From Vairimorpha necatrix (lineage: Eukaryota): DNA of 57,884 nt. Under the pieces are notes generated by a model. It was given only the letters and a program-made list of their open reading frames with translations, did no database searches and was not told the origin of the DNA. The stretch is from contig CP142730.1 of the NCBI GenBank assembly GCA_036630325.1, positions 1,240,001 to 1,297,884 on the forward strand, given 5' to 3'. Of this stretch, positions 1 to 55,391 are shown in pieces; position 1 is the stretch's first letter; each line of letters opens with the position of its first letter. The position numbers and the translations under genes were made by a program.

Positions 1-199
1 TGTCCAGTTTATTTTTTTTAGGAATAATTAAAATTTCTTTTTATTATTGGTTCTTATGCATTATTAACAAAAAAATTCATATTCTTTTATAATCAAAATT
101 TCGTAAATATAAATTTCGAAGTCCATTTTTTGACTAAAAAAGTAGTAAATTTATAACCGGTGTCAATTAAACATATTCAAAGATAGAATTTCCACTTAT

Positions 200-237
200 T
201 GTAGGGTTTAGAACCCTTAATAAATAAATGGTTAACA
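200..237 (+). repeat. 5' LTR, 38 bp
   Basis: Exact match to 3237-3274. Contains the AGGGTT/AACCCT hairpin, ACCC, overlapping AATAAA hexamers (219-228) and the ORF's ATG. Confidence 0.95.
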
Positions 238-3200
238 TGGCGAACACAAGGATGAACAGGGAAACAAGAGAGTCCCGTAGTCAAGAGGCTAGAACATTAG
301 AGAAAGAGGCAATTAGGATAGATAAGAGACTAAAGTTAATATTGAAAGTTGAGAAAGTTGAGTGGAAAGATGTTATGGATTTGGCATCTGCGAACTTGCA
401 GGATTATATTTTTGAAAATTTTTGTGACGGAAGGAGCAGTTGGGAGGAAATTTATAAAGGCTTACAAAAAGGAGCAGAATTTGAGAGAGAGTCAGAAGAA
501 AGACAAGAAATGATTAAAGAGATTATGGATAAAGTGTTGAAAGAGTTTAGGGAAGAAAGAAAAGAAAATCTTAGGATGTATAGGAAAAGAAGAGAAATCA
601 GAGAAACTACAAAATGTTTTATATGTAAGAAAGAAGGGCATTACGCTAGAGAATGTCATGAAAGTGTAGCTGGTAGGGAAAAATATAAAATTAAAAAGGA
701 ACAAGTTTTACAGAAAGAACCAATTATCAACAATGAAGGGAAAAGATGTAAAACAGTAAATAAGTTAGAAAATTTAATTGAAAAGTATCCGGAAGTTTTT
801 AAAGAATCAGAAGAAAAGATAAAATATCTCACAGGAGAGAAGTGTCCAATAAATACTAAGCAAGGTGAAAAGGTTGTGAAAAGAGGGCAGAATGTGCCAT
901 ACTACCTTAGGGTGAAATTTGAGGAGTACTTGAATAAGTTGGAAAATAGAGGGGTTATAAGACGTTCCAAAAGTGAGTGGAGGAGTCCAATAAGAGCACT
1001 TGAAAACCCAAATGGGGACGTAAGATTGGTAAGCAATTTGATGGCGTTAAACGATTTGGTTGACAAGGACCCGTACTCACTACCGTTAATTAAGGATATT
1101 ATGAGAGCCACACAGGGGTCAAAAGTATTTACGGTTATCGACTTAAAAGAAGGGTTTTATCATATTGAGATTGAGGAGCACCATAAGCACAAAACAGCAT
1201 TTGAAGTGAATGGTCGAGTATACGAATGGAATAGTATGGTTATGGGGTTTAAGAATTCGCCTCATATAATGCAGAGAGTAATGAACAGAGTTTTAGATGA
1301 ATTCAGAGGTAAAGGCGTGGAAGTATATATGGATGATATAGTTATTCATGGTAAAGACGTAAGAGTGCATGACGAGTTACTAGAGAGGGTAATTAAAAAG
1401 TTTAAAGAGTGTGGGTTGAGAATAAACCAAACAAAGATACAATACAAAAAAGATGAGGTGATGTTGCTGGGAGTAACAATTAATGGGGAGGTCATGGGAC
1501 CGAATGAGATTAAAAAGCAGGAGACATTGGAATATAGAAAACCTGAGAATGTTAGAGAGTTAAGAAGATTTTTAGGACTAACTGGTTGGTTTAGAGACTT
1601 TATTCCCAACTATGCGTATAGAACAGTAAGGCTTACTGAGGCTTTAAAGAAAGATGTTAAGTGGAATTGGACGGAGGATATGGAAAGAGCTTTTGAGGAT
1701 ATGAAGCAAGGCTTGAGAGATATGAAAAAGTTGAAGATTCCGGACGGAAAAAAGCTATTTAGAGTAAGAACTGATGCGTGTGATACGGGGATCGGAGCAA
1801 TTCTATTACAAGAAAATAAAGAGGGTGAGTGGATTCCGATACAATGGGCATCGAAAATGTTGACTCCTACCGAGCGAAGATATACGATAAGTGAGAAGGA
1901 GATGTTGGTGGTGTTTTTTGGAATAAAGAAGTTTGAAAGTGATTTGAGAGGAAGGAAATTTCATTTGATGACGGATCATAAAGCATTAGCAGAGATCAGA
2001 AATAAGCCATACTTCAATAATAACAGAATAAACAGATGGGTAGAACAGATACAAGAGTTTGACTTTACAATAGAGTATGTGAAAGGGGAGTTGATGACAG
2101 ATGCAGATGCGTTAAGTAGGCAGTATGATCAGGTAGAAGTTTCGGATGAACAAAAAGAAAAGGACAACAAGAGAAAAGAAGTGATCGAAAAACAAATTTT
2201 GGGAAAAAAGCAGAAACATATTAAAGAAAAGGACGGTAAACAGTATTGGGAATTTTCCACAGGTGAGGTGAAAGAGATATTGAGCCTAGATAGTAGAGAA
2301 CATGAAATAACAAGAGTACATGAGGAGTTAAACCATAGAGGTGTCAAAGGCACTTATTATAACATTAAACAAAGATGGTATTGGCCTGGTATGAAAGATC
2401 ATATTAATAAGGTAATTAAGAATTGTGAAATATGTGGGATTAACAATAGGAAAAACACAGGAGGATGTGATTTCGTAGTAACTAGAAAGAAATTGGAGAA
2501 AGTGGCGTTGGATTTAATGGACATAGGTGGAGAGAATAAGTATGTGTTACTGGGTATTGATTACTTTACTAGAAGGTTGTGGGGTTCGAATTTGAGATGT
2601 AAAGAGAGTAGTGAAGTTATAGAGGTATTACAAAAGTGGATAAGGGAAGATGGATTTCCAGAGGAATATGTGACAGACAACGGAAAAGAGTTTGTAAGTA
2701 ATAGATTTAAAGAATGGTGTAGTATTAATGATATTAAACATAGGAAAGTGGGCTTAGAAGCTCATAGGAGTAATGGTAGAATCGAGAGATGCATCAGAAC
2801 TATAAGAGAGACATTGATAAAGCAAAATGATGGGAATATTTCTGAAAAGATAGAAAGAGCAATCAAAGGATATAATAATACACTACATACAGCAATAAAA
2901 TGTACGCCGATGGAAGCGTGGAGAGATCAAACTGCTGAAGTTTTAATTGAAAATGATGAAAATGGAAAATATGCTGGTCGGTTCAAGAGAAGACACAGAG
3001 AGACATTTACAGTAGGCCAAGAGGTAAGAATCGCTAGGAGAGAAAATTTAGGTACACGTGCGAAAACAGACAAGGGAAGATTCACGGGTCGCGGAAGGAT
3101 CGTAGCTATAAGTGAAAATGATTCATATATTGTGAGACTACTGGATGGTAAAATTGTTAAAAAGAGGCATTATGATTTGAAAGAGATAAGGAAGAGTTGT

Positions 3201-3248
3201 TTAAAAGATGGAGAGACTACCCGTCTGGAGGGGGGATGTAGGGTTTAG
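228..3248 (+). CDS. Gag-Pol polyprotein (short Gag with CCHC knuckle, RT, RNase H, integrase); no protease motif seen
   Basis: 1006-aa ORF. CFICKKEGHYAREC knuckle; RT IDLKEGF...YMDD; RNase H TDAC...TDHKAL...ADALSR; integrase HEELNH...CEIC with LDLMD/TDNG/IERC; SH3-like C-terminus. An alternative ATG lies at 237. Confidence 0.95.
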   Translation: MVNMANTRMNRETRESRSQEARTLEKEAIRIDKRLKLILKVEKVEWKDVMDLASANLQDYIFENFCDGRSSWEEIYKGLQKGAEFERESEERQEMIKEIMDKVLKEFREERKENLRMYRKRREIRETTKCFICKKEGHYARECHESVAGREKYKIKKEQVLQKEPIINNEGKRCKTVNKLENLIEKYPEVFKESEEKIKYLTGEKCPINTKQGEKVVKRGQNVPYYLRVKFEEYLNKLENRGVIRRSKSEWRSPIRALENPNGDVRLVSNLMALNDLVDKDPYSLPLIKDIMRATQGSKVFTVIDLKEGFYHIEIEEHHKHKTAFEVNGRVYEWNSMVMGFKNSPHIMQRVMNRVLDEFRGKGVEVYMDDIVIHGKDVRVHDELLERVIKKFKECGLRINQTKIQYKKDEVMLLGVTINGEVMGPNEIKKQETLEYRKPENVRELRRFLGLTGWFRDFIPNYAYRTVRLTEALKKDVKWNWTEDMERAFEDMKQGLRDMKKLKIPDGKKLFRVRTDACDTGIGAILLQENKEGEWIPIQWASKMLTPTERRYTISEKEMLVVFFGIKKFESDLRGRKFHLMTDHKALAEIRNKPYFNNNRINRWVEQIQEFDFTIEYVKGELMTDADALSRQYDQVEVSDEQKEKDNKRKEVIEKQILGKKQKHIKEKDGKQYWEFSTGEVKEILSLDSREHEITRVHEELNHRGVKGTYYNIKQRWYWPGMKDHINKVIKNCEICGINNRKNTGGCDFVVTRKKLEKVALDLMDIGGENKYVLLGIDYFTRRLWGSNLRCKESSEVIEVLQKWIREDGFPEEYVTDNGKEFVSNRFKEWCSINDIKHRKVGLEAHRSNGRIERCIRTIRETLIKQNDGNISEKIERAIKGYNNTLHTAIKCTPMEAWRDQTAEVLIENDENGKYAGRFKRRHRETFTVGQEVRIARRENLGTRAKTDKGRFTGRGRIVAISENDSYIVRLLDGKIVKKRHYDLKEIRKSCLKDGETTRLEGGCRV

Positions 3249-3274
3249 AACCCTTAATAAATAAATGGTTAACA
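3237..3274 (+). repeat. 3' LTR, 38 bp
   Basis: Exact match to 200-237. Preceded by the PPT, followed by TSD CTTAT, and contains the ORF stop TAG (3246-3248). Confidence 0.95.
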
Positions 3275-6200
3275 CTTATTAATATCTCAAAGGATCTTTT
3301 TAATAGCTAGATTTAAATTTCATAACCCAAACATTATGTTCCTATTATTTTACCTTTTTAAAAATTTAAGTAAAATTTTTTAAATGAGGATAAACATACA
3401 ATTTCGAAATATGATTTTTTTTATGCCATTAAAATTGGAGATCATAATAAAAACAAAAACCTTTTTTATATTGAAAAGCCAACCATCGTACAAAAATTTC
3501 AATGGCCAATAACTTGTGATGCCTACCACAATGCTAAAAGGCTCTTGTCTGTATTAATATACAATTTTTTTTTGAACTATTTAGTAGTCCATTAGAAAAC
3601 AAGGCCATATTAAGTAATATTAAAATATTGCAAGAGCCTGTACTTAAATTACTAATTTGATCTAAGAAGTTACACGTGACAAGCAACATGTTCATTTTAA
3701 ATACTGTCAAAAGTATTCAAATTTTATCATACAGCTTCTAAAGCGTCGAATTAATTTTTGAAATTTTAGTATTTCATTTCTATTTTTTAACTCGAAATAC
3801 AAAATCAAAAAATTAGAATTGCTCAAATGAAAGATTTGAAAATCTCAATCAAATATGAGAACAAACATGAAGACTCATAGAAATTCAAACAAACAAATAG
3901 AACTATCTAGGCGCAAAAGCAAAAGTTTTTAATAATAGAAAAACATAAAATTTTTTATTAAGCTTTGAAAGAGTGCAATTTTGTTTGTCAATAAAAAATA
4001 ATGTAAACTCGAGAATATGTTCTTTGAGATACATTCCTCCATTGAATTTTATTATTCAAATTCCTTGTTTTCTATTCCACTGAGATTTATTTTAGGAATT
4101 ATTACTATCAATATAAGATTTTATATCAGCTTTCATTTCATTATGAATCTCTCGTTTCTTTGTATATAGCCTGGTATTTAGTGATTATGTTGCTACTGAG
4201 AAAACTTTTTATTATGAAAGATCAAAAAACATATTATATTGGGAATACAGACGAAACTATACATATTTACAAACCACATAAAAAATAATAGAACAGCAAA
4301 CGCAAAATATGCAAATGTAGTTAATTGTTCTAAAAAGGCGCCTTAAAATATCTATTATTCCATGAGCACATTTTTTTAAACCTGTAAAAATCGGACATTT
4401 AATGGTCAAATAAAAAACCTGTCTTTTATGATTTTTTTACAACAATATATCCGAAAAGACGCTGTATTCAACCTTTTTCAAAGACGAATGGCACATACTA
4501 ATCCGTCCCTACTTATTTAGACCATTTTTTAAAAAAGTACTCATGTAATTTGCTTTTCAGGTGAGCAATATAGAGCTATATAATAAATGTATTTTTTCTA
4601 CTACAAATGTAGTTAATTTGCTTAGGACTAATTTGATTTTGAGCTTATCTTTGTATTTTGTTATAATTCTTCATCTTGTCTTGGCTTTTTTTAGGAAAAG
4701 AATAAAGAAAACTTATATACTGACAAAGAATATCCTATCTACTGTACAAATATTATAAATTGTTTTCCTCTCTCTTTTTTTAGTACAAATTTCACTTATT
4801 ACTAATAATATAGTCTCCATAAGAAACTTAAGACGTTTTTTAATTTTTTTTGTTAGTATGAAATTGTTATACCACTATTTTTATCTAAAAAATGTATAAA
4901 TTTTTTCTTCTAAGTTTGATATTTAAAATCATAATCACAGTAGTTATTATATAGCTAATTTAACTTTCATTAAATCCGATTTTTTTTTCATTTCTAACAG
5001 TACTACAATCATCTATCAGTATTAGTTCCCTTTAAAAATTCTTGTTAAGTCTTTACGAAATATTTCCGTTTAAATTATCATGTTCTTTAACAATTTGGTC
5101 AATTTTTATAATTGACAATTTATAAATAATTTTAAACTTTGATATTTAAGCATCAAAGATACTATTTATTAGTCAAAGCTTATATTAAGAATAATAACGA
5201 AAGTCAAATATTACAATATACTACATAATTCCTATTAAAATATATGTAAACAGATATTCATAATTTTTAAATCTACGACCATATATTTGTAATATATATT
5301 ATCATTTGAAATTATTCAGTCATTTGAATTTTTTTCATATAAATAAAAGACTTTGTGTCTTATTTTGTACCTAGCTTAAAACGTGCAAAATTTATTTCAA
5401 TGGGTTTTTATAAAAATATTAATAGAGATAGATTACTTTTTTTTCCTCAAATAGTGTCAACAGTAATTTATTAAAGACGGGGACGCGTTTTAACAAAACG
5501 TAAAAAATAATATGTACCTCATAAATATTTACTTTTCAGACTTTGTATATTTTCTAAATATATATAAGTTTTTTTTCATTAAAATTTTAATTTTGATTTT
5601 AAAATTCATACTCTTATTGTATAATTTTCTAATTTGTACAAAACCACTGAGTAATTTTATTCTAACCACGAAAAGCAGCATAATAAACAATATAACAGAT
5701 AAAGTTTGATAAACAAAAAAACATATTTGTATTCAAATATCATTACCCCCTTGCGCCTTAGTACGCCATCCCTTAGAACACGCCACCAGTTTACTGTTAG
5801 ATAAGCATTGTTTTCTGTAATCGACAGATTTACTTATAAAAGTTAAATCTTGAGCCGTAAATGTTTTTAATATATCATATGATAAATTTAGATAAGGTAT
5901 AACTTTTTTAAGAAATTCCAAGTATGTGGACTTTTTTTTCCTCGCAAAAAAGTATGAAAAATTTACGAGCATTAGATTATAAATGAAATTTTAGACATAC
6001 TATATTGCTAATCAATCAAATATTTTTAATAAGTAAAAAAATTGATCAAGCATTTAAGAATTTGTTAAGAAAATATTAAGACTGAAAAATCAAAAATAAA
6101 ATCTTTTGATGTATTTGTATTTGCTAATGGGTATGCTTTTTACAGCTTAACAAATTGCAAATTTCTATGTTATCTTGTGAATTGCGTAAAATTTTTTTTA

Positions 6201-8329: not shown

Positions 8330-9631
8330 TTAATTTTTATTTATTTTTCTTAATAAAAATACCGAAAAAGCAAATATTAATATGAAAATGGCATATAACA
8401 ACAAATAAAGATATGGTTTGCTATTTCTGTCATTGGGATTATCTTTTGAATCATTGTTATTATTGTCGTGTTTACTATCGGGTATCGAGGTTTTTAGAAT
8501 CTTATCCGCCTTTTCATTCTCAAGATTATTATCAAATTCTGAGTTATCAAGCTTCTTTTCAGACTTTTCATTCTCGAGCCCTAAATTGCCTGGATTCTGA
8601 TCAAGCGTTTCGTCATCAAGATTTTTATCAGGCTCTGATTGCAAATAATTTAGGTTCTTATCAGGGATTTCGTCCGCAAGACCCATATCAGGAGTTTTGT
8701 TCGCAAGATTATCATAAGTTTCTGAATTTTTTGAATTTACACTATATTCTTCTTTCTCTTGATTATTATCCAGCTTTACGTTGCCATTCTTATCTGAGAT
8801 TTTATTTATAAGTTTATTATCAGATTCCAAATTGCCTAGAATCTTATCAGGCGTTTCGTCAAATAAAGTTTTGTCGGTTTCCGAGTTATTTAAATTCTTA
8901 TCAGAAGTTTCTTTATCAAGATTATTATCAGGTCTTATGTTACTTAGATCAGCATCGAGTTTTTCGTTTTTAAGATTATCAATCGGTTCTATATTCAGTT
9001 GTTTTTTATTTTCTTTAGTATTTTCATAAGTATCATTTTGCTCAAGATTCTTATTACTATTATCCAAACTATTAGTACTCTCCGAATCAGAATTATTTAT
9101 TACATTTGAACTATTCTGGCTCAAATTATTTATAATTTTTCTTGCTTTTAGTATGACTAGCTCCCCAAAATGTAATTTACCATCAAAATTAAATAATTGT
9201 GTGTAAGAAAGATCTTTGGGTCCATTATTCGCTCTTTCTAAAAGAAGTCCAAAAAAATATTTTCTTCCATCCGCTAAGTTGATTGTACATTTATAATATT
9301 TTACACTTTTAATAAATTTTCTAATACAATCGTAACGATTAAATTTTTCTGCAGCTTTTCTGATCTCACAAAATGCCTCTTTTTTTATTAGTTGTAAGTC
9401 GCTTTCATTACCTGCCATCGATAGTTCTACTTTATCATATAAATCGTCTCGATTTGGAAGCTCAGAAATAAAATCTTCGTCTTTAAGAAGCGTAATTCGC
9501 AGGTTTTCTAGACCGCTAGCAAAGCTTGTAATACCAACATATACATCACATGTATCATTTTCTTTATACTCAACAAATAGTGATAGCCAACAATATCCCC
9601 AAACAATAAATATTTGAAGCTTCCAATACAT
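8330..9631 (-). CDS. Hypothetical type I membrane/surface protein with N/D/K-rich repeats
   Basis: 433-aa ORF with ACCC 2 nt upstream of the ATG. Hydrophobic N-terminus, degenerate DKNL..E.D repeats, C-terminal TM segment YLYLLLYAIFILIFAFSVFLL followed by a short basic tail. Confidence 0.88.
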   Translation of the reverse strand: MYWKLQIFIVWGYCWLSLFVEYKENDTCDVYVGITSFASGLENLRITLLKDEDFISELPNRDDLYDKVELSMAGNESDLQLIKKEAFCEIRKAAEKFNRYDCIRKFIKSVKYYKCTINLADGRKYFFGLLLERANNGPKDLSYTQLFNFDGKLHFGELVILKARKIINNLSQNSSNVINNSDSESTNSLDNSNKNLEQNDTYENTKENKKQLNIEPIDNLKNEKLDADLSNIRPDNNLDKETSDKNLNNSETDKTLFDETPDKILGNLESDNKLINKISDKNGNVKLDNNQEKEEYSVNSKNSETYDNLANKTPDMGLADEIPDKNLNYLQSEPDKNLDDETLDQNPGNLGLENEKSEKKLDNSEFDNNLENEKADKILKTSIPDSKHDNNNNDSKDNPNDRNSKPYLYLLLYAIFILIFAFSVFLLRKINKN

Positions 9632-11901: not shown

Positions 11902-12930
11902 TTATAATTCATTTATAGCATTTTTAGTATGTTTAATCTTAAATAATTTGTAAGAATAATACATAACTAGAATTATTAATGGAATAATGATGAATAATAC
12001 AACAGTTATTAGATTAGATGGAGACATCACAGGGTTACGCTTAGTATCGCCATCATCAGAAGATGAATCTTCTTCATTAACATGATTTGATTGCGAAATC
12101 TCCTGTTTGATATCAAGCTTGCTAGGATTGCAATCCTCTTTAGTACGGAAAACTGGTTTTTTGTTGTCATATAATTCTGTCTTGGTATTGTTTTCTCGAA
12201 ATTCAATTGTACTAGTATCAAAATTCTTATCAAATTCTAATTCTTTATTGGTATTATTTTCTCGAAATTCAATTGTACTAGTATCAAAATTCTTTTCAAA
12301 TTCTAGTTCTTTATTGGTATTATTTTCGCTAAATTCAATTGCATCAGTTCCAGAATTCTTTTTAAATTCTACTTCTTTATTATTATTATTTTCTCTAAAT
12401 TCAATTGCATCAGTTCCAGAATTCTTTTTAAATTCTACTTCTTTATTATTATTATTTTCTCTGAATTTAATTGCATCAGTATCAGAACGTTTTATAAATT
12501 CTAATTCATTATTGTTATTATTTTCTCTAAATCCAATTGCATCAGTATCAGAACGATTAATAAAAGCCAATACTTTAATGGTATTGTTTTCTCTAAATTC
12601 AATTGCGTCAGTATCAGAATTTTTTTTAAATTCTTTTTCGTGTTGAAATACCTCTATAAAATTAATATTTACATAATATTTATACTCTATCTTTGGTTCA
12701 CTTTTATCATCAATGATTACACTTGCAACTTCGCTTTTGAAAGATTCTATATCTAACGCATTCACATTTTGCTCTTTAATTTCTATTCTCGATTCATTTT
12801 CAATACGTAAATGCCTTCTTAATGCTTGATATTTTAAATAAATGGATACAATACCAGACAAATATTCAATAATATGATTTCCATGATTAATGAAAGTTAA
12901 ATATAAGCAAACAAACATGATAAAAAACAT
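11902..12930 (-). CDS. Hypothetical type I membrane/surface protein with 22-aa tandem repeats
   Basis: Lies within the 368-aa ORF. The likely start is the ATG at 12930 (GCCCTATT-ATG), giving a hydrophobic N-terminus MFFIMFVCLYLTF. C-terminal TM LITVVLFIIIPLIILVMYY. Confidence 0.85.
   Translation of the reverse strand: MFFIMFVCLYLTFINHGNHIIEYLSGIVSIYLKYQALRRHLRIENESRIEIKEQNVNALDIESFKSEVASVIIDDKSEPKIEYKYYVNINFIEVFQHEKEFKKNSDTDAIEFRENNTIKVLAFINRSDTDAIGFRENNNNNELEFIKRSDTDAIKFRENNNNKEVEFKKNSGTDAIEFRENNNNKEVEFKKNSGTDAIEFSENNTNKELEFEKNFDTSTIEFRENNTNKELEFDKNFDTSTIEFRENNTKTELYDNKKPVFRTKEDCNPSKLDIKQEISQSNHVNEEDSSSDDGDTKRNPVMSPSNLITVVLFIIIPLIILVMYYSYKLFKIKHTKNAINEL
12180..12640 (-). repeat. Intragenic 66-bp tandem repeat (about 7 copies)
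   Basis: ATTCAATTGTACTAGTATC recurs at 12201 and 12267. Peptide unit of type IEFRENNTNKELEFDKNFDTST. Confidence 0.92.
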
Positions 12931-14342: not shown

Positions 14343-14440
14343 TCTATTGTAGGAAGTGCTACACATGTCAAATATATTGTGTCATTGTTTTGATATATTT
14401 GACATGTTGTTTCTTTAAATATTTTATAATAATTAAACCC

Positions 14441-15667
14441 ATGTTTTTATCCCAACAATTTGGCGACAACGTCAGGAACTTTCTCATTTTCAGAAATGAA
14501 GAAAAAGATGATCCACAACAGTTCTTGGAGGACTTGCAGGATGTGGGGAGGCTGATGGAGTACAGTGAGAGTAAACTTGTACTCCTTTTCAGAATGTCGT
14601 TAAAAGATGAAGCGAGGGATTGGTTGATAGCGCAGCCAATTGGTCTTTCACTTGAAAGACTGAAATTTTTGTTTCAAGAAAGATTTGTGGGTTCTATGGC
14701 GATGAAAGTGAGTATAGATAAACTTTCCGCTCTTCAATATCATGGTGGATCGCTAATCAACTATCTAGATAAGATGGCGGGATTGGCGCGCAGGGCGAAT
14801 GTTCCGGAAGGTGTATTAATTGCTTTTGTACTAAAAGGAATTCCGAACAATATAGCAAATTCGATCTTAATAAATAACAAAGACTCATTATCCTGGGAGT
14901 ACCTATATAAAGCCATAAGGAATGTTTTGGAAGTGGATGATACACGTCATAAAGAAATTTCGCGTGGAGATTATGTGGATGTAAAAGCGATTAGCTGCAA
15001 GGTCCACGATAGAAAGATTTGGACTTCTAAAAGGAACAAAGAAAAGAGATGTTTTATTTGCGGAAAGAAAGGCCATACAGTAGCACGGTGTAAATTTAAT
15101 AGTTACCGTAGAGATATAAGCGAAGTCAAGAAACCCCAAGAAGAAGGAGAAAATAAGAAGGTGGATGTAAAGGAATTTATTTATAATTACTCTGTTGCAA
15201 AGGTCAAGGATGATAGGACTACGCTCAAAGAAGCGTCATTAAATAATTCGGAAGTTAAATTTAAAGCGCTCATCGATACTGGTGCTGATATAAATCTAAT
15301 TAGACCAGAGATTTTGCCAAATAAAACCGTTGTTAATCGTTCTAAACAACAGCTTAGGGCAGCCAATGGATCGAAAATAAGGATCATTGGAGAAACAGTA
15401 GTTAAAATAAAAATTGAGGGAATGATATTTGAAGATAAATTTATTATTACTAGGGATATCACAATTCCCTGCATTATAGGACAGGGGTTACTAGACATGT
15501 ACAAGATAAATTTAAAATTTGGAAGTAACAAAATGGAAATTGAATCTGGACTTTTGGCAAAGGGAAAAGCCATAGGATACATAAAATTATCACAAAGAAT
15601 GATAACCCAATACTATCTCAGTTATACAAATTGGGGGGAGCAAAAGAGGATATTGCGTCCCAAATAG
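14441..15667 (+). CDS. Gag-protease
   Basis: Start ACCC-ATG at 14441 inside the 5' LTR. Retrotransposon-gag-like LKDEARDW...FQERF; CFICGKKGHTVARC knuckle; protease ALIDTGADINLI...IIGQGLL. Confidence 0.9.
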   Translation: MFLSQQFGDNVRNFLIFRNEEKDDPQQFLEDLQDVGRLMEYSESKLVLLFRMSLKDEARDWLIAQPIGLSLERLKFLFQERFVGSMAMKVSIDKLSALQYHGGSLINYLDKMAGLARRANVPEGVLIAFVLKGIPNNIANSILINNKDSLSWEYLYKAIRNVLEVDDTRHKEISRGDYVDVKAISCKVHDRKIWTSKRNKEKRCFICGKKGHTVARCKFNSYRRDISEVKKPQEEGENKKVDVKEFIYNYSVAKVKDDRTTLKEASLNNSEVKFKALIDTGADINLIRPEILPNKTVVNRSKQQLRAANGSKIRIIGETVVKIKIEGMIFEDKFIITRDITIPCIIGQGLLDMYKINLKFGSNKMEIESGLLAKGKAIGYIKLSQRMITQYYLSYTNWGEQKRILRPK

Positions 15668-17934
15668 TGAAAGAGTATCTAAAACGTGGAATAGTTAGAC
15701 CAAGTGTAAGCGCATGGCGAAGCCCGATAATTATAGTCCCTAAAAAGAATGGAGACCACAGATTATGTGTGGATTATCGAAGATTAAATGATGCGACTAT
15801 TAGAGATGCGTATCCAATGCCTAGAGTAGAAGAGTTCATCAACGCTTTAGAGGGTGCAACATACTTTACTAAATTAGACGCTGAATCGGGCTATCACCAA
15901 ATAGATATGGCGCCGTGTGATATTGAGAAGACAGCCTTTGCCTGTAGAGAAGGCTTATTTGAATTTACAAAAAAGCCATTTGGACTTGTTAATGGTCCAG
16001 CTACATTTCAGCGGGTGATGAATAACATATTGAGGGAATTTTTGTTTAAGTTTGTGGTAGTATATATGGATGATATACTGATTTATAGTAAAACTGAAGA
16101 AGATCATAAGAAAGATGTTCAAATGGTATTAGAGAAGCTCAAGTCGGTAGGACTGAAACTTAATGAGGATAAATGCGAATTTAATAAGACAGAATTAAAA
16201 ATTTTAGGTCATGTGATATCAAAAGAGGGAATAAGTGTGGACGAAGAAAGGTTTAGGAGCATTCAACAGTTACCAATTCCTAAAAGTAAGAAGAAATTAC
16301 AATCTTTGTTGGGGCTGTATAATTATTGCTCTAAATTTATTAAAAACAGCCATAAAGTGGTTAGCCCACTATTCGATATAATAAGACTCAAGAATGAGGA
16401 CGCTGATAACTTTTGGAAAAATGCAGAGAATGATGCAAAATACTGCAAGGCAATCGAAGAGGTAAAACAGGCTATGAAGAGAACAGCTTTATTGACAATT
16501 CCAAATTTAAAGGATAGATTTATATTGACTACGGATGCATCGAATGAGGGAAGTGGGGCAACATTGGCTCAGATGGTCGGAGGAAAAGAAAAGATTATTT
16601 CTTATTACAGCTCTTTACACTCCAAGACAGAAAAAAACTATTCTACTACTGAGCAAGAATTGCTAGCAGTTATAAAATCGATTCAAAACTTCAGAGAATA
16701 TTTATTATTGGGGAAATTTACGCTAAAAACGGATCATCAGGCTTTAAAATATTTGTTTAAGTCTAGGAATGTAAAAGCTAGGTTGGCTAGATGGTCATTA
16801 CTGCTACAAGAATATGATTTCGACATTGAATATATTACAGGACCATCAAACCATACAGATCACCTAAGCAGAGATTTTAAAAAACAGGAGGAGATAGTTT
16901 CAGAAATAAGTTCAATACAAAGGAAAATAGTTAAAAAAGAAAGGACAATAGTGTTATTAAAGTTTTACCATGATTTATTAGGGCATGGATCAAAACAAAA
17001 TATGAAATATAATATTGGTCGAAAATTTACTTGGAAGAATATGAGTAGAGACATAGAAAATTATGTAGATAATTGTGAAATTTGTCAAAAAGAAAAACCT
17101 CAGAGAAAATTTAGAGATATTGTACCATTAGTAACAAAGACAATAGGAGAAATCTGGGAAGTAGACATAGTAGGGCCCTTGAGAGAAAGCGAGCAAGGAT
17201 ATAAATTTTTATTGACAATGATTGATCACTTTTCGAAAATTGCAGAGGTGGTGCCGATTTATACAAAAGATATGAATACGGTTATTTATCTGGTAGATAA
17301 ACATATAGTCAGGAAGTATGGTATTCCAAAGGCAATTTTATCTGATAATGGTAAAGAATTCAAAAATAATATCTGTGAGGAATATGCGAAGACCAAAAAA
17401 TTCATCTGGAAATATGGTTCCCCTTATAAACCTACAACCACGGGGCTTGTTGAGAGGTTTAACAGAACAATAGCCATAAAATTAAGGAAGGTTACAGAAT
17501 TTGGGAAATTTGATTGGGCGAAATGTGTCCCTAAAGTAGTCCGAGCCTATATGCAATCATATCATAGGGCTATAGGGTGTGCACCAATAGAACTTTTAAC
17601 AGGAATAGTTCCAAATAAGATAGATATACAAGAAGGAATGCACCTAACAAAGGATAAGAAAGAGTTTCAGAAGCAGGCGATTAAGAATTTGGAAGTTTAC
17701 AGACAAGAATATGACACGGGTAATAAAGCTAATGCTGTTGATAAGGATGCCATTAAGGTGGGAGATAGAGTTTGGTATCATTTAATTTTACCGTTTAGAG
17801 GAAAACTCGAACCAAAATGGGAAGAAAAAGGAGTTGTAGTAGAGAAAAAATTTCATTCATTTAAAGTTTTATTAGATAGTGGGAAGACTGTTACAGCAAG
17901 CCGAAATCATGTTAAGCTTTTAAAGGAGGGGTAG
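15544..17934 (+). CDS. Pol (RT-RNase H-integrase), in the -1 frame relative to gag-PR
   Basis: Frame open from 15544. HKIITKNDNPI, LCVDYRRLN, YMDD, TDAS, TDHQAL, HDLLGH...CEIC, VDIVG/SDNG/VERFN. No ATG start of its own near the 5' end. Confidence 0.9.
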   Translation: MWTFGKGKSHRIHKIITKNDNPILSQLYKLGGAKEDIASQIVKEYLKRGIVRPSVSAWRSPIIIVPKKNGDHRLCVDYRRLNDATIRDAYPMPRVEEFINALEGATYFTKLDAESGYHQIDMAPCDIEKTAFACREGLFEFTKKPFGLVNGPATFQRVMNNILREFLFKFVVVYMDDILIYSKTEEDHKKDVQMVLEKLKSVGLKLNEDKCEFNKTELKILGHVISKEGISVDEERFRSIQQLPIPKSKKKLQSLLGLYNYCSKFIKNSHKVVSPLFDIIRLKNEDADNFWKNAENDAKYCKAIEEVKQAMKRTALLTIPNLKDRFILTTDASNEGSGATLAQMVGGKEKIISYYSSLHSKTEKNYSTTEQELLAVIKSIQNFREYLLLGKFTLKTDHQALKYLFKSRNVKARLARWSLLLQEYDFDIEYITGPSNHTDHLSRDFKKQEEIVSEISSIQRKIVKKERTIVLLKFYHDLLGHGSKQNMKYNIGRKFTWKNMSRDIENYVDNCEICQKEKPQRKFRDIVPLVTKTIGEIWEVDIVGPLRESEQGYKFLLTMIDHFSKIAEVVPIYTKDMNTVIYLVDKHIVRKYGIPKAILSDNGKEFKNNICEEYAKTKKFIWKYGSPYKPTTTGLVERFNRTIAIKLRKVTEFGKFDWAKCVPKVVRAYMQSYHRAIGCAPIELLTGIVPNKIDIQEGMHLTKDKKEFQKQAIKNLEVYRQEYDTGNKANAVDKDAIKVGDRVWYHLILPFRGKLEPKWEEKGVVVEKKFHSFKVLLDSGKTVTASRNHVKLLKEG

Positions 17935-18049
17935 TGTAGGAAGTGCTACACATGTCAAATATATTGTGTCATTGTTTTGATATATTTGACATGTTGTTTC
18001 TTTAAATATTTTATAATAATTAAACCCATGTTTTTATCCCAACATCTAT

Positions 18050-19334: not shown

Positions 19335-19975
19335 CCAGTACAAGAGATCATGGAAAATGATCGTGCAGAAATAAGAGTAGATACGAGAATATCCACTAAC
19401 ATAAATGTGACCCATAATAAGCCTGCTATTCTTGTGTTGACAAGAAGAAGAAAGAAATTTTAATAGTTGAAGTTGTATAACCAACCAGGATCGACTTACT
19501 ATACCAAGAACGAAAAACCAAGAAATATTACCTTCCTGCAAATGAACTGGGACTAATAAATCTCGGACGAGAATAGTTCCTTATGTAATGACATGGGATG
19601 GAGTGATAACTAAATATCACAGAAAGTACACCAGGGAGCTAGAAATCCAACCACGCCCGGAAGCATAAATCCAGTCTATTGTGATGAAGAAGACTCTAGA
19701 GTCCATCTCTTTGGAACTACGACGAGGATACGATCAGATGCAAAAGAAGAAGAAGAAGAAGTGGCTAGAGCTGTAAGCGCAATAGCGAATATGGCGACTG
19801 TTAAAGAAGTGGTGTCGGCAAATGGGAATGAAGCTGAAAAGGTGAAGTTGGAAAACATTAATAATTCCACAGAAACAAAAGTCTGTGAAGAGCTAAATCC
19901 CATGAGCGATACCGGGGATAGCTATGCTAACACTATTTAAAATTAATTATAAATTAGCCCAATAAATTACTTATT
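19335..19975 (+). mobile_element. 5'-truncated non-LTR retrotransposon, restriction-like endonuclease (RLE) C-terminus, decayed
   Basis: Broken frames give AEIRVDTRI..HNKPAILV, DKKKKEILIVEV, ANELGLI and IVPYVMTWDGVITKYHRKY...IQSIVMKKTLESISLE. This is a PD..E/K-type RLE pattern. Confidence 0.8.
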
Positions 19976-20294: not shown

Positions 20295-22592
20295 ATGAAT
20301 ATAATTAAATTTGTTGTAGCATTTTTAGTTGTACAATGTTCGGATATTGTGTATAATAATCTAAAAATTGCTTTTTTAAATAAAATAGCAGTAGGAGATT
20401 ATTGTTTTTTGAATAATGAAAGCAGATATTTATGTGTAATGTTTAATTTTCACCTTCGCAAAAATGCAATAAAAGCAGGAATTAAGATTACAACTTTTCC
20501 TTGGCATTTTGAAGAATCAGAATATTTGATTGTGGATATGGAGAACAAATCTATTGATAATATCTTAAAGAAATTCGAAGAAAAATTATTTATTAAATAC
20601 AAAAAAAAAGCAGCAGATGCTATAATATTAATATACAGACCAAACAATTGTAGAACTAATGCATTCTATAAAAGAATTATCAAACGGATAGAAAAAATAA
20701 ATGACGAACGAAAAGAAATGCATATACGTCCTGATATCATTTATAAATATATAATTGGCATCGATTCTCTATGGTATAGAATGACCAAAGTATTGAGAGA
20801 TGATTTGGAATTATACGGAGTTCGGATCGATTATAAAATTCCGCTATATATTGAAGAAAATACAGAAGGAATTTATTTAGTTATTAGTATTCAATTAGAT
20901 AATATATATTATTGTTTTGAAATAGATGTTAAAGAACTTGATAGAAATTTGATATTATCACTGGTGGAATTTGAGCCAACACATGAAGATGAAAGTCATG
21001 ACCTGATTAGTAGGTTGTTTTGTGATTTGTATGCTTTTGTTTCTACTGATGATATCGGTTCCTTACATCCTTCACGCTTTTCAGTTTGTGAACTCAATAA
21101 AATTGAATTTTTCGAAAACAAAATACAAATGGGTTTAGAATGTGAAAAATTATGTCTTACTATTAACACTGATAATTTTAAATATATTTTAAGAAAGAAG
21201 GTAGGTAGAGGTGAAACTAAATTATTCATTTATGAAAAAACATATTTAGAATTTCAAGGATTTTTTAAAAAAATTTATGCAATAGAACAAATGAAAGAGA
21301 AAGAAAATATCATAGAATTGTTTTATAGGTTGATGAGTAATAATAATCAAATACTTTATTTATTAAATAGAATTTTAGATAAAACAAGCACTGTTCTGAA
21401 TATTATTTTTAAATATCTTATAGACTGTCAGAATATAATTAATAAAAACGAACATGAGTTGACAATAGGAAAAAAACAGAGAAATAAAACAGAAAGGCAA
21501 ATAATCTTGGAAGCACTACAGGATATATTTTCGCGCGGCTATAAGTCATCAAGTACCTATCTAATTAAAATCTGTTTATTGCTAGAAGCTGAAGAGCTTA
21601 TTAATAAAAACGAGGTATTCGATGAACCAATATTTGGGACTTTGAAAAGAATTACTGAATTAGTTCCGTCGCAGGAAAATTCAATGAACATTATCTCGAG
21701 CGAAGATAATATTAATTTGTGTAAAGCATATCAATATTTAGTAAAAAATTGTCTTGCGGATATAAAAATATATAAAAGAAATATTTGGAAGGTTGTATAT
21801 AAATTTGCGGCATTGTTTACAGGTTTAGAAAAGACTGAATGCATTGCAGCTGATTATTATTATTATATCGTAAAAAGTAATGAGATCGCAAATTTGGGCC
21901 TCGGGGAAAATGAAGTTACTAAAAATTACGATACGGTAAGTAAAAAAATATTAGAAAAACATTTAGAAGACATTAAAAAAGAAAATTTAAAGTATTTTTA
22001 TAATATTAAAAATATTATCGAAAGCATTAGCCATCTAAAAATGAGCGAAGAAGAAATAAAGATTAAAGGATCTGAAATAACGACACTCTTAAATAAAATA
22101 AATATAAAAATACATAGATTAAAGTTAATGTCTTTGAAAAATGAAGCTTTAAATGCAAATATTGAAAATTTATACGATGAAAAGACAAGAACTAAATTTG
22201 AAAATGACTTAAGAGAAAGAGGAAAAGAAGAAATAACAGATATTTATATAGGTGATATTGAAACTCACGAATTAATTAAATTCATAGATAAATATGATAA
22301 AAATATTCTACTCGAATATAATAATTTTATTTTGATTACATTCTTTGCTGAATTGAGTGCTTTTATTGACAAAAATACAAAAAGAAGTTGTGAAAGAGAT
22401 TTACCAAGAGTTTCTGTTTTACTTATCGAAAATAGTTTAAATAATGAAGCATTTAAACAATATGCTTGCGAAAAAATTCTTAGAAGGATGGTTAACATAT
22501 TAGGTGAAATTGGCATATTAAAAAGTTTAAATAAATCAGGAATAACATTACATGATGATTTAGTAAAAACAATAAAAGATAAAGAAGAGTGA
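20295..22592 (+). CDS. Hypothetical secreted protein, 765 aa
   Basis: Long ORF in AT-rich DNA with AACCCC-ATG start. Signal-peptide-like MNIIKFVVAFLVVQCS. AATAAA just after the stop. No domain recognised. Confidence 0.9.
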   Translation: MNIIKFVVAFLVVQCSDIVYNNLKIAFLNKIAVGDYCFLNNESRYLCVMFNFHLRKNAIKAGIKITTFPWHFEESEYLIVDMENKSIDNILKKFEEKLFIKYKKKAADAIILIYRPNNCRTNAFYKRIIKRIEKINDERKEMHIRPDIIYKYIIGIDSLWYRMTKVLRDDLELYGVRIDYKIPLYIEENTEGIYLVISIQLDNIYYCFEIDVKELDRNLILSLVEFEPTHEDESHDLISRLFCDLYAFVSTDDIGSLHPSRFSVCELNKIEFFENKIQMGLECEKLCLTINTDNFKYILRKKVGRGETKLFIYEKTYLEFQGFFKKIYAIEQMKEKENIIELFYRLMSNNNQILYLLNRILDKTSTVLNIIFKYLIDCQNIINKNEHELTIGKKQRNKTERQIILEALQDIFSRGYKSSSTYLIKICLLLEAEELINKNEVFDEPIFGTLKRITELVPSQENSMNIISSEDNINLCKAYQYLVKNCLADIKIYKRNIWKVVYKFAALFTGLEKTECIAADYYYYIVKSNEIANLGLGENEVTKNYDTVSKKILEKHLEDIKKENLKYFYNIKNIIESISHLKMSEEEIKIKGSEITTLLNKINIKIHRLKLMSLKNEALNANIENLYDEKTRTKFENDLRERGKEEITDIYIGDIETHELIKFIDKYDKNILLEYNNFILITFFAELSAFIDKNTKRSCERDLPRVSVLLIENSLNNEAFKQYACEKILRRMVNILGEIGILKSLNKSGITLHDDLVKTIKDKEE

Positions 22593-30227: not shown

Positions 30228-30288
30228 TAGGTTAGGAATCGGTAGGTTAGTTTAGGTAGGTTAGGTAAGTAGGTTGGTAGGTTAGGTA
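30228..30288 (+). repeat. Interstitial telomere-like tract (degenerate TAGG/TTAGG)
   Basis: TAGGTTAGG...GGTAGGTTAGTTTAGGTAGGTTAGGTAAGTAGGTTGGTAGGTTAGGTA, on the same strand as the terminal telomere. Confidence 0.85.
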
Positions 30289-30939: not shown

Positions 30940-31722
30940 TTTTATTATTGTTCTATAAATGACACTTGAGTATCTTTATTTGGTTTTAAAGCATTTATGA
31001 AATTTGCCATTTTCCCATCTCCTTCTATTATACATATATAAGAAGACAAATCTTGAAAAATATGAAAAATTCAGAACAGCCGAAAATGCATATAAATACA
31101 CATTATTGTTATATAAGTAAAGTTGAGTATCTTTATATGTTTTTAAAGCATTTAAGAAATTTGCCATTTTTACATCTCTTTCTTGTATATATATATAAGA
31201 AGACAAATCTTGAAAAATATGAAAAATTCAGAACAGCCGAAAATGCATATAAATACACATTATTGTTATATAAGTAAAGTTGAGTATCTTTATATGTTTT
31301 TAAAGCATTTAAGAAATTTGCCATTTTTACATCTCTTTCTTGTATATATATATAAGAAGACAAATCTTGAAAAATATGAAAAAAAAAGATGCTGAAAATG
31401 CATATAAATACACATATTGTTATATAAGTATCACTTGAGTATCTTTTTTTGTTTTTAAAGCATTTAAGAAATTTGCCATTTTTACATCTCTTTCTTGTAT
31501 ATATATATATAAGAAGACAAATCTTGAAAAATATGAAAAAAAAAGATGCTGAAAATGCATATAAATACACATATTGTTATATAAGTATCACTTGAGTATC
31601 TTTTTTTGTTTTTAAAGCTTTTATGAAATTTGTTAATTTTCCATCTCATTCTAGTATACATATATAAGAAGACAAATCTAGAAAAATATAAAAAAATTAA
31701 GAACAGCTGAAAATGCATATAA
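30940..31722. repeat. 157-bp tandem satellite, about 5 copies
   Basis: AGAAGACAAATCT recurs at 31041, 31198, 31355, 31512 and 31667. Confidence 0.95.
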
Positions 31723-33084
31723 TTGTACGGTCTTATGTGATAACAAGGAATGTGTGTATATATATATGCGTACTTATTAGTTTATATGATTTATTTTTTC
31801 TTTAAGTAAATCAAAGTATGTCTTTATTATTAAGATTTTAAAACAGAATGATTCTAAAAGTTTCTAGAGTAACCGTGGGAGTTTTACGATTTAATATTCT
31901 AACATAAGAATGATTAATAAATGTATACTAATTGGTAAAAATTTTTGTTATAATGATTAAATATTTTAAAAACTCCCAGAAACAATTTATATTTTAATTA
32001 CAATTACATCTAAATATATATACAAGTCTTTAAGTATCAGCAACATTTCTAATTTTTTTGGCTAATGGAAAGTATCTATGTATATTTGTACATGAGAGAG
32101 ATAATGAACACGAAAAAAGGAGAAATTGACATCTCATAAAACCTAGTAAAAATAACAATGTGTACATGTAAGTAAATTGTGAAGTTTTTATTCTAATTAA
32201 AACCTTTATTATATACATGATTTAAATTTTTTTAAAGGGTATCTATCTGCATATATATATATATATATAAAAGTACAAAATAAAAAACTTAAAAATCAAG
32301 AAAAATATACATAAATATTAGTGCAGTGAAATTAATTGTATTGAAATAATAGAACTTTCTATATCGTAACAAATAATATATAAGTATTTTTGTGTAATTA
32401 ATACATTCAATTATATAATTATTGCCAGTATCAACACATAGAATAAATAGATTTTGAATTAAACAAATCAGAATATAATTTGTGTATAAATCAATAACAA
32501 AAATTTTTTGTATTTAATGATGAATTCTTTATTTGGAATACATCGAGGTACATTAGAAAGAATATAATCGTAGATAAAAAACAACCAATACCCCATTGGA
32601 AAACAATACTGTATAAAAATACAACACTTTAATATAATATAAAACGAAATTTAAATATCATGAAGATTTTATATTTTATTTATTTAATACGAGAGAGCGA
32701 TTATATAAATGTATCGAAAATAAACACAATTTCTATTAATAATAATAGCAAAATCTCATAAGTACGTATGTATGAATTTAACATTGAAATTATGTATAAA
32801 TAAGAATTTTCATACAAAAATGTATATATTATCGTAGCCTCTTAAATACTGATCAATCATATTCTCACAAATTGGCTACAAAAAGTATTAAAAAAATATT
32901 CCAAAAGAGGGCATGATAATAAGAATGCAGAAATTGACCTATTTCAAATAAATAACATCTTATAAAATCAAGATACTTATATTATATAATTATATATTAT
33001 TTTTTGCATAATTCAATGAGAATTTCTAAAAAAAATAAGCTTGAATAAGAATTGTCATATTTACAAAAATTATGTTATGTCTAA

Positions 33085-34801: not shown

Positions 34802-35435
34802 GATTATAAATTATATAATACTTATTTTTATAATACTATATATTTTTAAAACTTCATTGTCATTCCAAACTTGTCTTATCTCTTTATTGCACCAATCCAA
34901 TCTTTGATTTATCATTGCCCCTCAACAAAAAAATTTTATTTAATATTTTAGGAGGGAAATTTAAAATAAACAAAATATAGAAAAGAGCGTAGATTTTGAA
35001 TTTAAAGGATTTAATAGCAAAAATAAAACAACTTTTTGTTATAAATTAATTAAAAATATACAATCAAAAACTAAACAAATATGTTAATTACTCTTTATTC
35101 AATGATCTTTATTTGAAATTTATTATTAATTTTTCTTTGTCTACAGAGTAACAACTCAATTAAAAAGATGACCAGATAATATTTTTTGAAATTTAATACG
35201 GCTTTTAAATTTTTATAATTCTCTTGACATTTTTGAAGAAATTCAAAATTTAATTAAATTTTTACTAAAAATCAAACGTAATGTCAAAATAAAATATTTT
35301 TTCCAAAATAATTTTAAAGTTGTAAAATTTTAAAAGTTTAGGAATTCATTATTTCTAAACTATATTATTATTGTGTACATATATATTAATATTTTAAAAT
35401 CTTATTTGCATTCTGCAGAAATTTAAACATTTCTG

Positions 35436-35740
35436 GAAGCATACATTCAGTCTAATGTGATGAAGAAAACTCCAGAGTCCATCTCTTTGGAACGACGAAC
35501 AAGATACGATAAAGATTATGCAGAAGAAGAAGAAGTGGGTAGAGCTGTAAGCGCACTAGCGAATATGGCGACTGTTGAACAAGCGATGTCGGTATAGGAG
35601 AATGAAGCTCAAAATTTGGAGTTGAAAAACATAAATAATTCCACATAAATCAAAGTCTATGAAGAGCCGAATCTAGTATCGATACCGAGGGAAACTGTGC
35701 TAATCTAACCTAAATGATAAATTAACTCAATAAATCTTTT
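35436..35740 (+). mobile_element. 3' fragment of the RLE LINE family seen at 19335-19975
   Basis: Colinear with about 19659-19965 (GAAGCATA..CAGTCTA.TGTGATGAAGAA...AGAGTCCATCTCTTTGGAAC...AGAGCTGTAAGCGCA.TAGCGAATATGGCGACTGTT). Confidence 0.85.
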
Positions 35741-51958: not shown

Positions 51959-52056
51959 ATTACAAATTAAAGAAGTAATTTCATTTTTTTACAATATATT
52001 ATTACATAAATTTATTCGCAGAAAAACATTAAAAATACTTTAAGTATTAATTATAA

Positions 52057-55000: not shown

Positions 55001-55228
55001 GTAAATAGATGAAAAGTATGAAAGGAAGATTTACAAATGTTGATAAAAGGAGGGGAAAGTCTGAGAATAATTCTTATATTGTAAGGATTGATAGCGGAAG
55101 ATACATTAAGAAAGACATTATGACCTAGAATTTTATAAAAATGATAAATTAGAAGCTTGTAACCTGAGACTACCCGTTTGAAGGAGAAATGTTAGGGTTG
55201 AACTTTCCTATTAAATAAATGTATAACA
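52057..55228 (+). mobile_element. Decayed full-length family A Gypsy element with 38/39-bp LTRs
   Basis: LTRs at 52057-52094 and 55190-55228 end in identical TATTAAATAAATGTATAACA. TSD TATAA on both sides. Same PBS TGGCGAACAC and pre-PPT GAGACTACCCGT as the copy at 200. Colinear pol (YMDD near 53302; HEELNHRG near 54272) with many stops and frameshifts. Confidence 0.93.
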
Positions 55229-55391
55229 TATAATCATTAATCTGAAAAAAAAATAATTGAATAAAAAAAATAGTTAGATAAATTTTTATTAAAAATTTTC
55301 TTTTTTTATTTATTTTAGTTACATATTGATTTAACTGATAAATTTTTTAAACAAAAGATTGAGGAAGTTTTGAGGGCTAAAAGCTTACGTG

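Follow-up and report, generated by a model that had tools for sequence, protein, structure and literature searches.

A 57,884-nucleotide (nt) stretch of the genome of the microsporidian Vairimorpha necatrix (GenBank assembly GCA_036630325.1, contig CP142730.1, positions 1,240,001–1,297,884; hereafter the window) contains, at positions 200–3274, a complete retrotransposon of the Ty3/gypsy type with a long terminal repeat (LTR) at either end. This element, referred to here as element A, is 3075 bp long and apparently young. Its LTRs measure only 38 bp, and its single open reading frame (ORF) spans from the 5′ LTR into the 3′ LTR, with the primer-binding site (PBS) and the polypurine tract (PPT) both inside it. 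Element A is a member of a miniaturised microsporidian clade of Ty3/gypsy-type elements, which would probably replicate through an RNA whose terminal redundancy, the R region, is very short. The window as a whole is A+T-rich (~19–36% G+C in 2-kb windows), and features are on its plus strand unless stated otherwise.

The 38-nt sequence TGTAGGGTTTAGAACCCTTAATAAATAAATGGTTAACA is found in exact copies at 200–237 (5′ LTR) and 3237–3274 (3′ LTR). A search of the window at up to three mismatches gave no third copy (0.00 expected from 100 shuffles), and a loose-motif scan of the window for solo LTRs also gave none. The element is bounded by a target-site duplication (TSD), CTTAT, with its left copy at 195–199 and its right copy at 3275–3279. 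Each LTR starts with TG and ends with CA, and in between it carries, in order, the final four sense codons of the polyprotein followed by its stop codon, a CCC triplet, two AATAAA hexamers and an ATG. The stop codon in use is the TAG at 3246–3248 (LTR nt 10–12 of the 3′ copy). In the 5′ copy, the sequence ACCC (213–216, LTR nt 14–17) places a host-like CCC motif 12–14 nt upstream of the ATG at 228–230 (ATG228), and it doubles as the 3′ arm of an inverted repeat, GGGTT-TAG-AACCC (204–216). The two overlapping hexamers lie at 219–228 and constitute a candidate poly(A) signal in the 3′ LTR copy (3256–3265).

The ORF, defined by its open frame and by domain search, runs from 228 to 3248 and codes for 1006 amino acids (aa). 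ATG228 directly follows an in-frame TAA (225–227). A second in-frame ATG (237–239), 9 nt 3′ of the first, is built from the last A of the LTR and the TG of TGGCGAACAC (238–247); this junction ATG is the candidate start codon that is most widely conserved among relatives. A third in-frame ATG is found at 252. The PBS, TGGCGAACACAA (238–249), abuts the LTR and is translated as A-N-T, and the PPT, GGAGGGGGGA (3227–3236), is likewise translated and abuts the 3′ LTR. An earlier, sequence-only reading of this DNA had described an ORF running from LTR to LTR with translated PBS and PPT and no internal untranslated region (UTR), and had assigned the stop TAG, the ACCC, the tandem AATAAA and the in-frame ATG228 to the same 38 bp. 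This description was confirmed at every coordinate, all the named signals are present, and the arrangement turned out to be conserved across the clade. Tf1-like self-priming was also considered and was dropped, as no complement of the PBS was seen in the LTR by eye, without a formal test.

Two further copies preserve the short LTR. A decayed A-type copy at 52057–55228, which has many stops and no ORF of at least 150 aa, is flanked by LTRs of 38 bp (52057–52094) and 39 bp (55190–55228) and by a TSD of its own, TATAA (52052–52056 and 55229–55233). It is 73–79% identical to element A over the aligned internal blocks. The junction ATG, which the same reading had held to be conserved in this copy, is indeed found there, in AACATGGCG at 52091–52099, and the same 12 nt of the PBS are present at 52095–52106. 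The other copy, L002, is a 3024-bp contig from another organism, with a protein 66% identical to that of element A. Its 3′ LTR is again 38 bp long, with GGG at nt 5–7, CCC at 15–17, ATTAAA/AATAAA at 20–29, an ATG at 29 and the end at 38; these positions match those of element A, and the stop codon is inside the LTR. ATTAAA/AATAAA hexamers are located at the matching LTR positions in the decayed copy as well. At the 3′ end, tracts related to the PPT occur in L002 and in the decayed copy, within a conserved stretch (3216–3236 in element A) that codes for ..TTRLEGG and is present in both. On these sequence comparisons, the 38-bp LTR geometry is a real feature, conserved across diverged copies.

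The conservation near the PPT includes about 12 nt on its 5′ side, ACTACCCGTCTG, which are kept between copies whose adjoining coding sequence varies in length (window 3216–3236, L002 ~2700–2723 and window 55169–55189); this suggests an extended plus-strand primer signal. The GGGTT-TAG-AACCC hairpin, in turn, has a stability similar to that of shuffled sequences (z −0.24 in element A, −0.09 in L002 and 0.03 in the decayed copy). L002 was found in a metagenome-assembled genome (MAG) labelled Clostridium (G001), which has 49 matches to the polyprotein on many short contigs of ~30–47% G+C; retroelement contigs of eukaryotic and in part microsporidian-like character have thus ended up in a bacterial bin.

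Recent mobility of element A was assessed by comparing Logan contigs of one public DNA run with positions 1–3600 of the window. Contigs of the element have a depth of 60–65, against ~3 for the flanks, a ratio of about 20. Three contigs with other upstream sequence start to match exactly at position 200, where contigs of other copies thus diverge from the window, and a 108-nt contig carries the left flank up to 200. A further contig, of 194 nt, joins position 189 to position 3269 and skips 3079 bases. We read it as the empty site, allowing for the similar bases that flank the joint. The deep contigs differ from element A at five positions only. That both an empty and a filled site are seen in one DNA run suggests recent mobility, and the data together favour a young family with multiple copies and an insertion that is polymorphic. 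It is extremely unlikely that the 38-bp repeat is an artefact of assembly or the remnant of longer LTRs: no evidence in support of this was found, the same LTR length recurs in three diverged copies, two of them with their own TSDs, and independent contigs have their breakpoints precisely where the LTR begins or ends.

The extension of the ORF into the LTR was then compared among the five elements with a readable, intact 5′ end. These are element A, a second element of the window (element B, described below) and three elements from the MAG that contains L002 (L004, L007 and L009). They differ in size, with LTRs of 38 bp in element A (3075 bp in total), 58 bp in L004 (3364 bp), 75 bp in L009 (3590 bp), 110 bp in element B (3697 bp) and 176/172 bp in L007 (3957 bp). 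In all five, the PBS is translated and the first in-frame ATG falls inside the 5′ LTR or on its final base. Four of them have the junction A|TG in frame; element B, where a short spacer intervenes, does not. The open frame of L004 has no ATG ahead of the junction ATG, which is also the sole one before residue 30. Upstream of the first ATG there is a CCC or GGG triplet, at −3 in element B, L007 and L009, at −14 in element A and at −21 in L004. The distance from the CCC to the end of the LTR is 21 nt in element A, 20 nt in L002, 19 nt in L004 and 17 nt in element B. Two other retroelement contigs of the MAG, L006 (1–117 and 4119–4235) and L010 (1–139 and 4005–4143), have identical ends, like circular assembly paths; tandem elements with a shared LTR, or one-LTR circles, would produce such ends.

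A wider sample was provided by 32 homologous proteins of 900–1200 aa among P0001–P0046, for which the counts are phylogenetically non-independent and were in several cases made by eye from printed termini. A methionine at the position expected from reading A|TGG, followed by A, G or V, is present in 23 of the 32. This set comprises 16 proteins with [N/H/Y/D]-M-[A/G] within the first 7–9 residues, one with this pattern at residue 29, five that start with M-[A/G] and one with D-N-M-V (by eye). Any residue that stands before the junction methionine is one of N, H, Y and D; these are encoded by NAC or NAT, which agrees with an LTR whose last two bases are CA. A further in-frame methionine lies upstream in 18 of the 32 proteins, and in the nine outside the set the N-terminus is cut off or different. 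The opposite end is less uniform. A tail like the PPT-coded E-T-T-R-L-E-G-G reads through into the LTR clearly in 10 of the 32, 18 stop earlier and four are cut off or unclear (by eye). We take the 5′ overlap of the ORF with the LTR to be selected and the 3′ overlap to be tolerated. The LTR-to-LTR layout is, on these comparisons, a conserved trait of the clade and not a quirk of a single copy.

The open frame at the LTR end and PBS could also be a by-product of CA standing next to TGG, with translation starting at ATG252 or later and the PBS lying in a short 5′ UTR. CA|TGG does yield an ATG in any element that lacks a spacer, and the eight codons from 228 to 252 are a length that is often open by chance. 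Against this stand the in-frame junction methionine in the 23 homologues, which are 40–66% identical, and in four of the five elements read from DNA; L004, where no other ATG precedes residue 30; the lack of conservation of ATG252; and a peptide, E-T/S-S-x-S-R-x-Q-E-A, that is seen by eye ~8 residues past the junction methionine in several lineages with different PBSs. A downstream start is therefore improbable in our judgement. The same peptide (window 237–300; P0003–P0025), kept despite the different PBS sequences, may represent either a motif of the Gag N-terminus or an RNA element that acts in cis beside the PBS.

The polyprotein combines Gag and Pol in one ORF. Its domains are, in order, a short Gag with a candidate CCHC zinc knuckle (aa 129–144), the reverse transcriptase (RT, aa 261–418), the RNase H (aa 481–611) and the integrase (aa 690–839), the latter comprising a zinc-binding domain (aa 690–741) and a core (aa 764–839). 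The corresponding family matches follow the same order: RVT_1 (9.7e-31), RT_RNaseH (6.6e-29), Integrase_H2C2 (2.7e-14) and rve (1.5e-10), whereas the zf-CCHC match on aa 129–143 scores 20.8 bits, exactly the curated cut-off. No capsid family was matched. The nearest named homologues are partial proteins of Nosema granulosis (70–73% identity), followed by proteins of Vairimorpha necatrix (48–49%) and Enteropsectra breve (44%), and all of the closest named matches are microsporidian. The exact 1006-aa protein had no match in a collection of 15 billion proteins, and a metagenome scan yielded only one distant relative (L001, 27% identity), which was not used further.

A further feature of the polyprotein, common to the entire clade of ~1000-aa proteins, is the lack of a recognisable aspartic protease. 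No protease family was matched in aa 1–270, even at E values up to 10, and by eye only ~35 aa separate the knuckle from the N-terminal region of the RT. A protease family is likewise listed for none of the 56 best hits (P0002–P0057), and one is listed for many longer and more distant hits. Both anchors of a crude motif scan for D[TS]G between the knuckle and the RT could be located in 31 relatives, and in 29 of these the scan was negative. In P0046, inspection by eye showed a stretch resembling a protease in which D-R-G replaces D-T/S-G. A protease-less polyprotein would act uncut, or would be cut by a host enzyme or by the protease of a relative, such as that of element B.

These absences, and the presence of a protease-coding element in the same window, are what one would expect if element A were non-autonomous, using the protease or particles of relatives like element B, or if it belonged to a dead lineage that only seems intact. 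However, the protease-less form is widespread, with frames of ~1000 aa kept open and the protease family in none of the 56 best hits, which argues for long-term selection on the present form. The identical LTRs, the intact ORF and the polymorphic insertion of element A also speak against a dead lineage, and help in trans is compatible with all the data presented here. We therefore regard non-autonomy or death of the lineage as unlikely.

The signals in the LTR resemble those of host genes. For comparison, the window offers four ORFs of 110 aa or more that belong neither to the elements nor to the telomere. Three of them have a CCC 3–7 nt upstream of the ATG, the fourth being antisense within one of those three, and two of the three CCC-bearing ORFs have AATAAA or ATTAAA no more than ~20 nt past the stop. 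The literature cited here by PMC number was consulted as excerpts, to which the statements drawn from it apply. Cornman et al. described, for both N. ceranae and E. cuniculi, a triplet of cytosines that lies no more than 15 bp from the start codon and is enriched at −10 to −3 (PMC2685015). Peyretaillade et al. reported that the 5′ UTRs of E. cuniculi are shorter than 7 nt, that AAUAAA is found near the stop in about half of the genes examined on chromosome II, AUUAAA making up 25% of observed cases, that the usual spacing between poly(A) signal and cleavage is ~20 nt, and that transcript read-through is frequent, with multi-gene transcripts documented (PMC2803860). Between them, these excerpts agree with the statement of the sequence-only reading that microsporidian genes have very short UTRs and CCC-like motifs near the ATG. 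By its motifs, the LTR resembles the end of a host-type gene joined head-to-tail to the start of one. The view that the element mimics host gene compaction stands as far as the signals are concerned, which fit both the ORFs of the window and the literature, whereas the mimicry itself would be an interpretation placed upon them.

Based on this layout, a replication mechanism can be proposed. RNA polymerase II would start in the 5′ LTR, a few bases 3′ of the CCC (about LTR nt 18–28), and translation would begin at ATG228, at the junction ATG237 or at both. Of these two candidates, ATG228 would fit the rule of a CCC within 15 nt, and the junction ATG would be the one conserved in the clade. The AATAAA pair of the 3′ LTR would direct cleavage ~10–20 nt downstream. 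The last hexamer ends 9 nt short of the LTR end and the usual spacing is ~20 nt, so that cleavage would fall at or just past the end of the LTR, and the whole stretch from the start site to the LTR end would serve as R (~10–21 nt), with little or no U5. A tRNA would anneal to TGGCGAACACAA and prime a minus-strand strong-stop DNA of ~10–21 nt, which would be transferred to the 3′ LTR's copy of those bases. Both LTR boundaries would then be set by the PPT and the PBS, as for any LTR element.

Short R regions exist in retroviruses. The geometry of element A limits R to 38 nt at most, and to ~21 nt or less if transcription starts 3′ of the CCC; the earlier claim that R must be tiny is borne out to this extent, and the difficulty for minus-strand transfer that was seen in it is by itself no paradox. 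We know of no reason why a short R should not function.

Alternatively, element A could have no promoter of its own and depend on read-through from its flanks or on pervasive transcription, which occurs in microsporidia. In that case the whole 38 bp would be R, the transfer would take place before the RNA 5′ end is reached, and the CCC and AATAAA would be incidental. The U3 region leaves at most ~17–21 nt for a promoter, and the read-through and multi-gene transcripts of E. cuniculi, as excerpted (PMC2803860), show a source of such RNA. On the other hand, at least three other flanks and the ~20-fold depth suggest insertion at many sites, each of which would need a suitable upstream promoter, and the positions of CCC/GGG and of the hexamers are kept in lineages only 66% identical in protein. 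Moreover, by the standard model, a strong-stop DNA with a flank-derived 3′ end would presumably not be extendable after transfer. A promoterless element is thus quite unlikely, and a start site inside the LTR, with a short R, is the reading that we favour.

Several points weigh against the miniaturised clade and its short-R mechanism. The start codon, R and the sites of transcription start and poly(A) addition are predicted from motifs. In element A, ATG228 and ATG237 follow the CCC at distances of 14 and 23 nt, beyond the host peak at −10 to −3. ATG228 overlaps the second AATAAA, and transcription starting upstream of it would yield an RNA with a poly(A) signal right at its 5′ end. There is no tRNA gene in the window to pair with the PBS, and the acceptor stem that the PBS implies would be unusually A/U-rich. 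In G001, a strict acceptor-stem pattern derived from the PBS had no matches, and the 76 tRNA matches of that genome are in bacterial-type clusters. The autonomy of element A is unproven, since it has no protease of its own. As for mobility, the depth of Logan contigs is not equivalent to copy number, and the 194-nt contig deviates from the window at several flank positions, so this empty site may come from another haplotype or strain.

A bolder proposal, possible but doubtful, is that LTR retrotransposition reaches its lower size limit in this clade, which would be autonomous at 3.1 kb with a 38-bp LTR, a redundancy of ~20 nt or less and no protease. The primer tRNA and the ribosome would then compete at the junction start codon, which might act as a switch between messenger and template.

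The window contains a second, larger LTR retrotransposon. Element B (14348–18044, 3697 bp) has 110-bp LTRs, the TSD TCTAT and a protease. Its ATG (14441) is within the 5′ LTR, directly after AAACCC, its PBS is translated, and its stop codon TAG (17932–17934) abuts the 3′ LTR. The LTRs of element B contain an inverted repeat of 16–17 bp, with an RNA fold z of −2.55 that was matched by 2 of 200 shuffles. Between its Gag-protease ORF (14441–15667) and the RT-integrase frame (open from 15544) there is an overlap of 124 nt in the −1 frame, which could reflect programmed pro-pol frameshifting or, alternatively, a mutation of recent date.

Other repeats are also present in the window. The decayed A-type copy adjoins telomere repeats, lying ~150 bp away on their internal side; at 55384–57884, where the window ends, there are ~2.5 kb of irregular telomere-like repeats, with TTAGG and TAGG units at spacings of 9 and 13, and a short patch of telomere-like repeat is found at 30241–30288. 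A 157-bp unit is present in five tandem copies at 30966–31748. A 66-bp unit occurs seven times (12106–12705) in an ORF on the minus strand (11902–12930), which would thus code for a repetitive protein. Two pairs of dispersed repeats are 83–94% identical (19641–19899 and 35417–35673; 43483–43647 and 45172–45336). Three large host ORFs (20295–22592, and on the minus strand 8330–9631 and 11902–12930) gave no above-threshold Pfam match and look like lineage-specific subtelomeric genes.

The small size of these LTRs has a practical consequence. Tools for finding LTRs usually expect, by default, a length of at least ~100 bp, and the Nosema apis genome paper, for instance, used LTR_FINDER at default settings. 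A clade with LTRs of 38–75 bp would go undetected or enter annotations as bare 'pol' genes, and the activity of transposable elements in microsporidian genomes would consequently be under-counted. Element A would also show how few bases can carry the integrase ends, promoter, poly(A) signal, terminal redundancy, start codon and stop codon. It constitutes a natural minimal system for the R needed in minus-strand transfer, for the microsporidian core promoter and for a Gag-Pol fusion without protease.

In the literature searched, no paper was found on microsporidian elements with such LTRs, on their PBS or PPT, on a junction start codon or on protease loss; a prior description is still possible. 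The Nbr elements of Nosema bombycis are reportedly counted among the microsporidian Ty3/gypsy groups with a single ORF. Microsporidian Ty3/gypsy elements with a single polyprotein are, as such, already known (Parisot et al. 2014, PMC4202319; PMC13174016). As excerpted, the groups of PMC4202319 resemble element A in their fused Gag-Pol, in the order RT-RNase H-integrase and in their microsporidian hosts, and the excerpt makes no mention of LTR length, PBS, PPT, protease or ORF start.

Other systems share some of its features. Coding sequence over the PPT and U3 is found in retroviruses, in which HIV nef and MMTV sag overlap the 3′ LTR, and strand transfer operates there with a short R, that of MMTV being very short. 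These are accessory genes and their LTRs are hundreds of bases long, whereas in element A it is the main polyprotein itself that ends in the LTR. In Ty1 of Saccharomyces cerevisiae, GAG starts within the 5′ LTR, and the LTRs are ~330 bp long. Its PBS is inside the GAG ORF, as the PBS of element A is inside its ORF, according to the excerpt of PMC4974528. Ty1 differs from element A in being a 5.9-kb element of the copia type, by the same excerpt, and in having separate GAG and POL, a protease and a start codon that is not built from the LTR/PBS junction. With regard to size, the excerpted text of PMC3281118 describes FRetro129/SMART of grasses, a non-coding element of 292 bp with 85-bp LTRs, as the smallest LTR retrotransposon reported up to 2012, together with FRetro64, a coding element of 5.2 kb with LTRs of 76/90 bp. 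As described there, these elements have, like element A, very short LTRs, TG..CA ends and a 5-bp TSD; the LTR of element A is half as long, and as a coding element it measures 3.1 kb, compared with the 5.2 kb of FRetro64.

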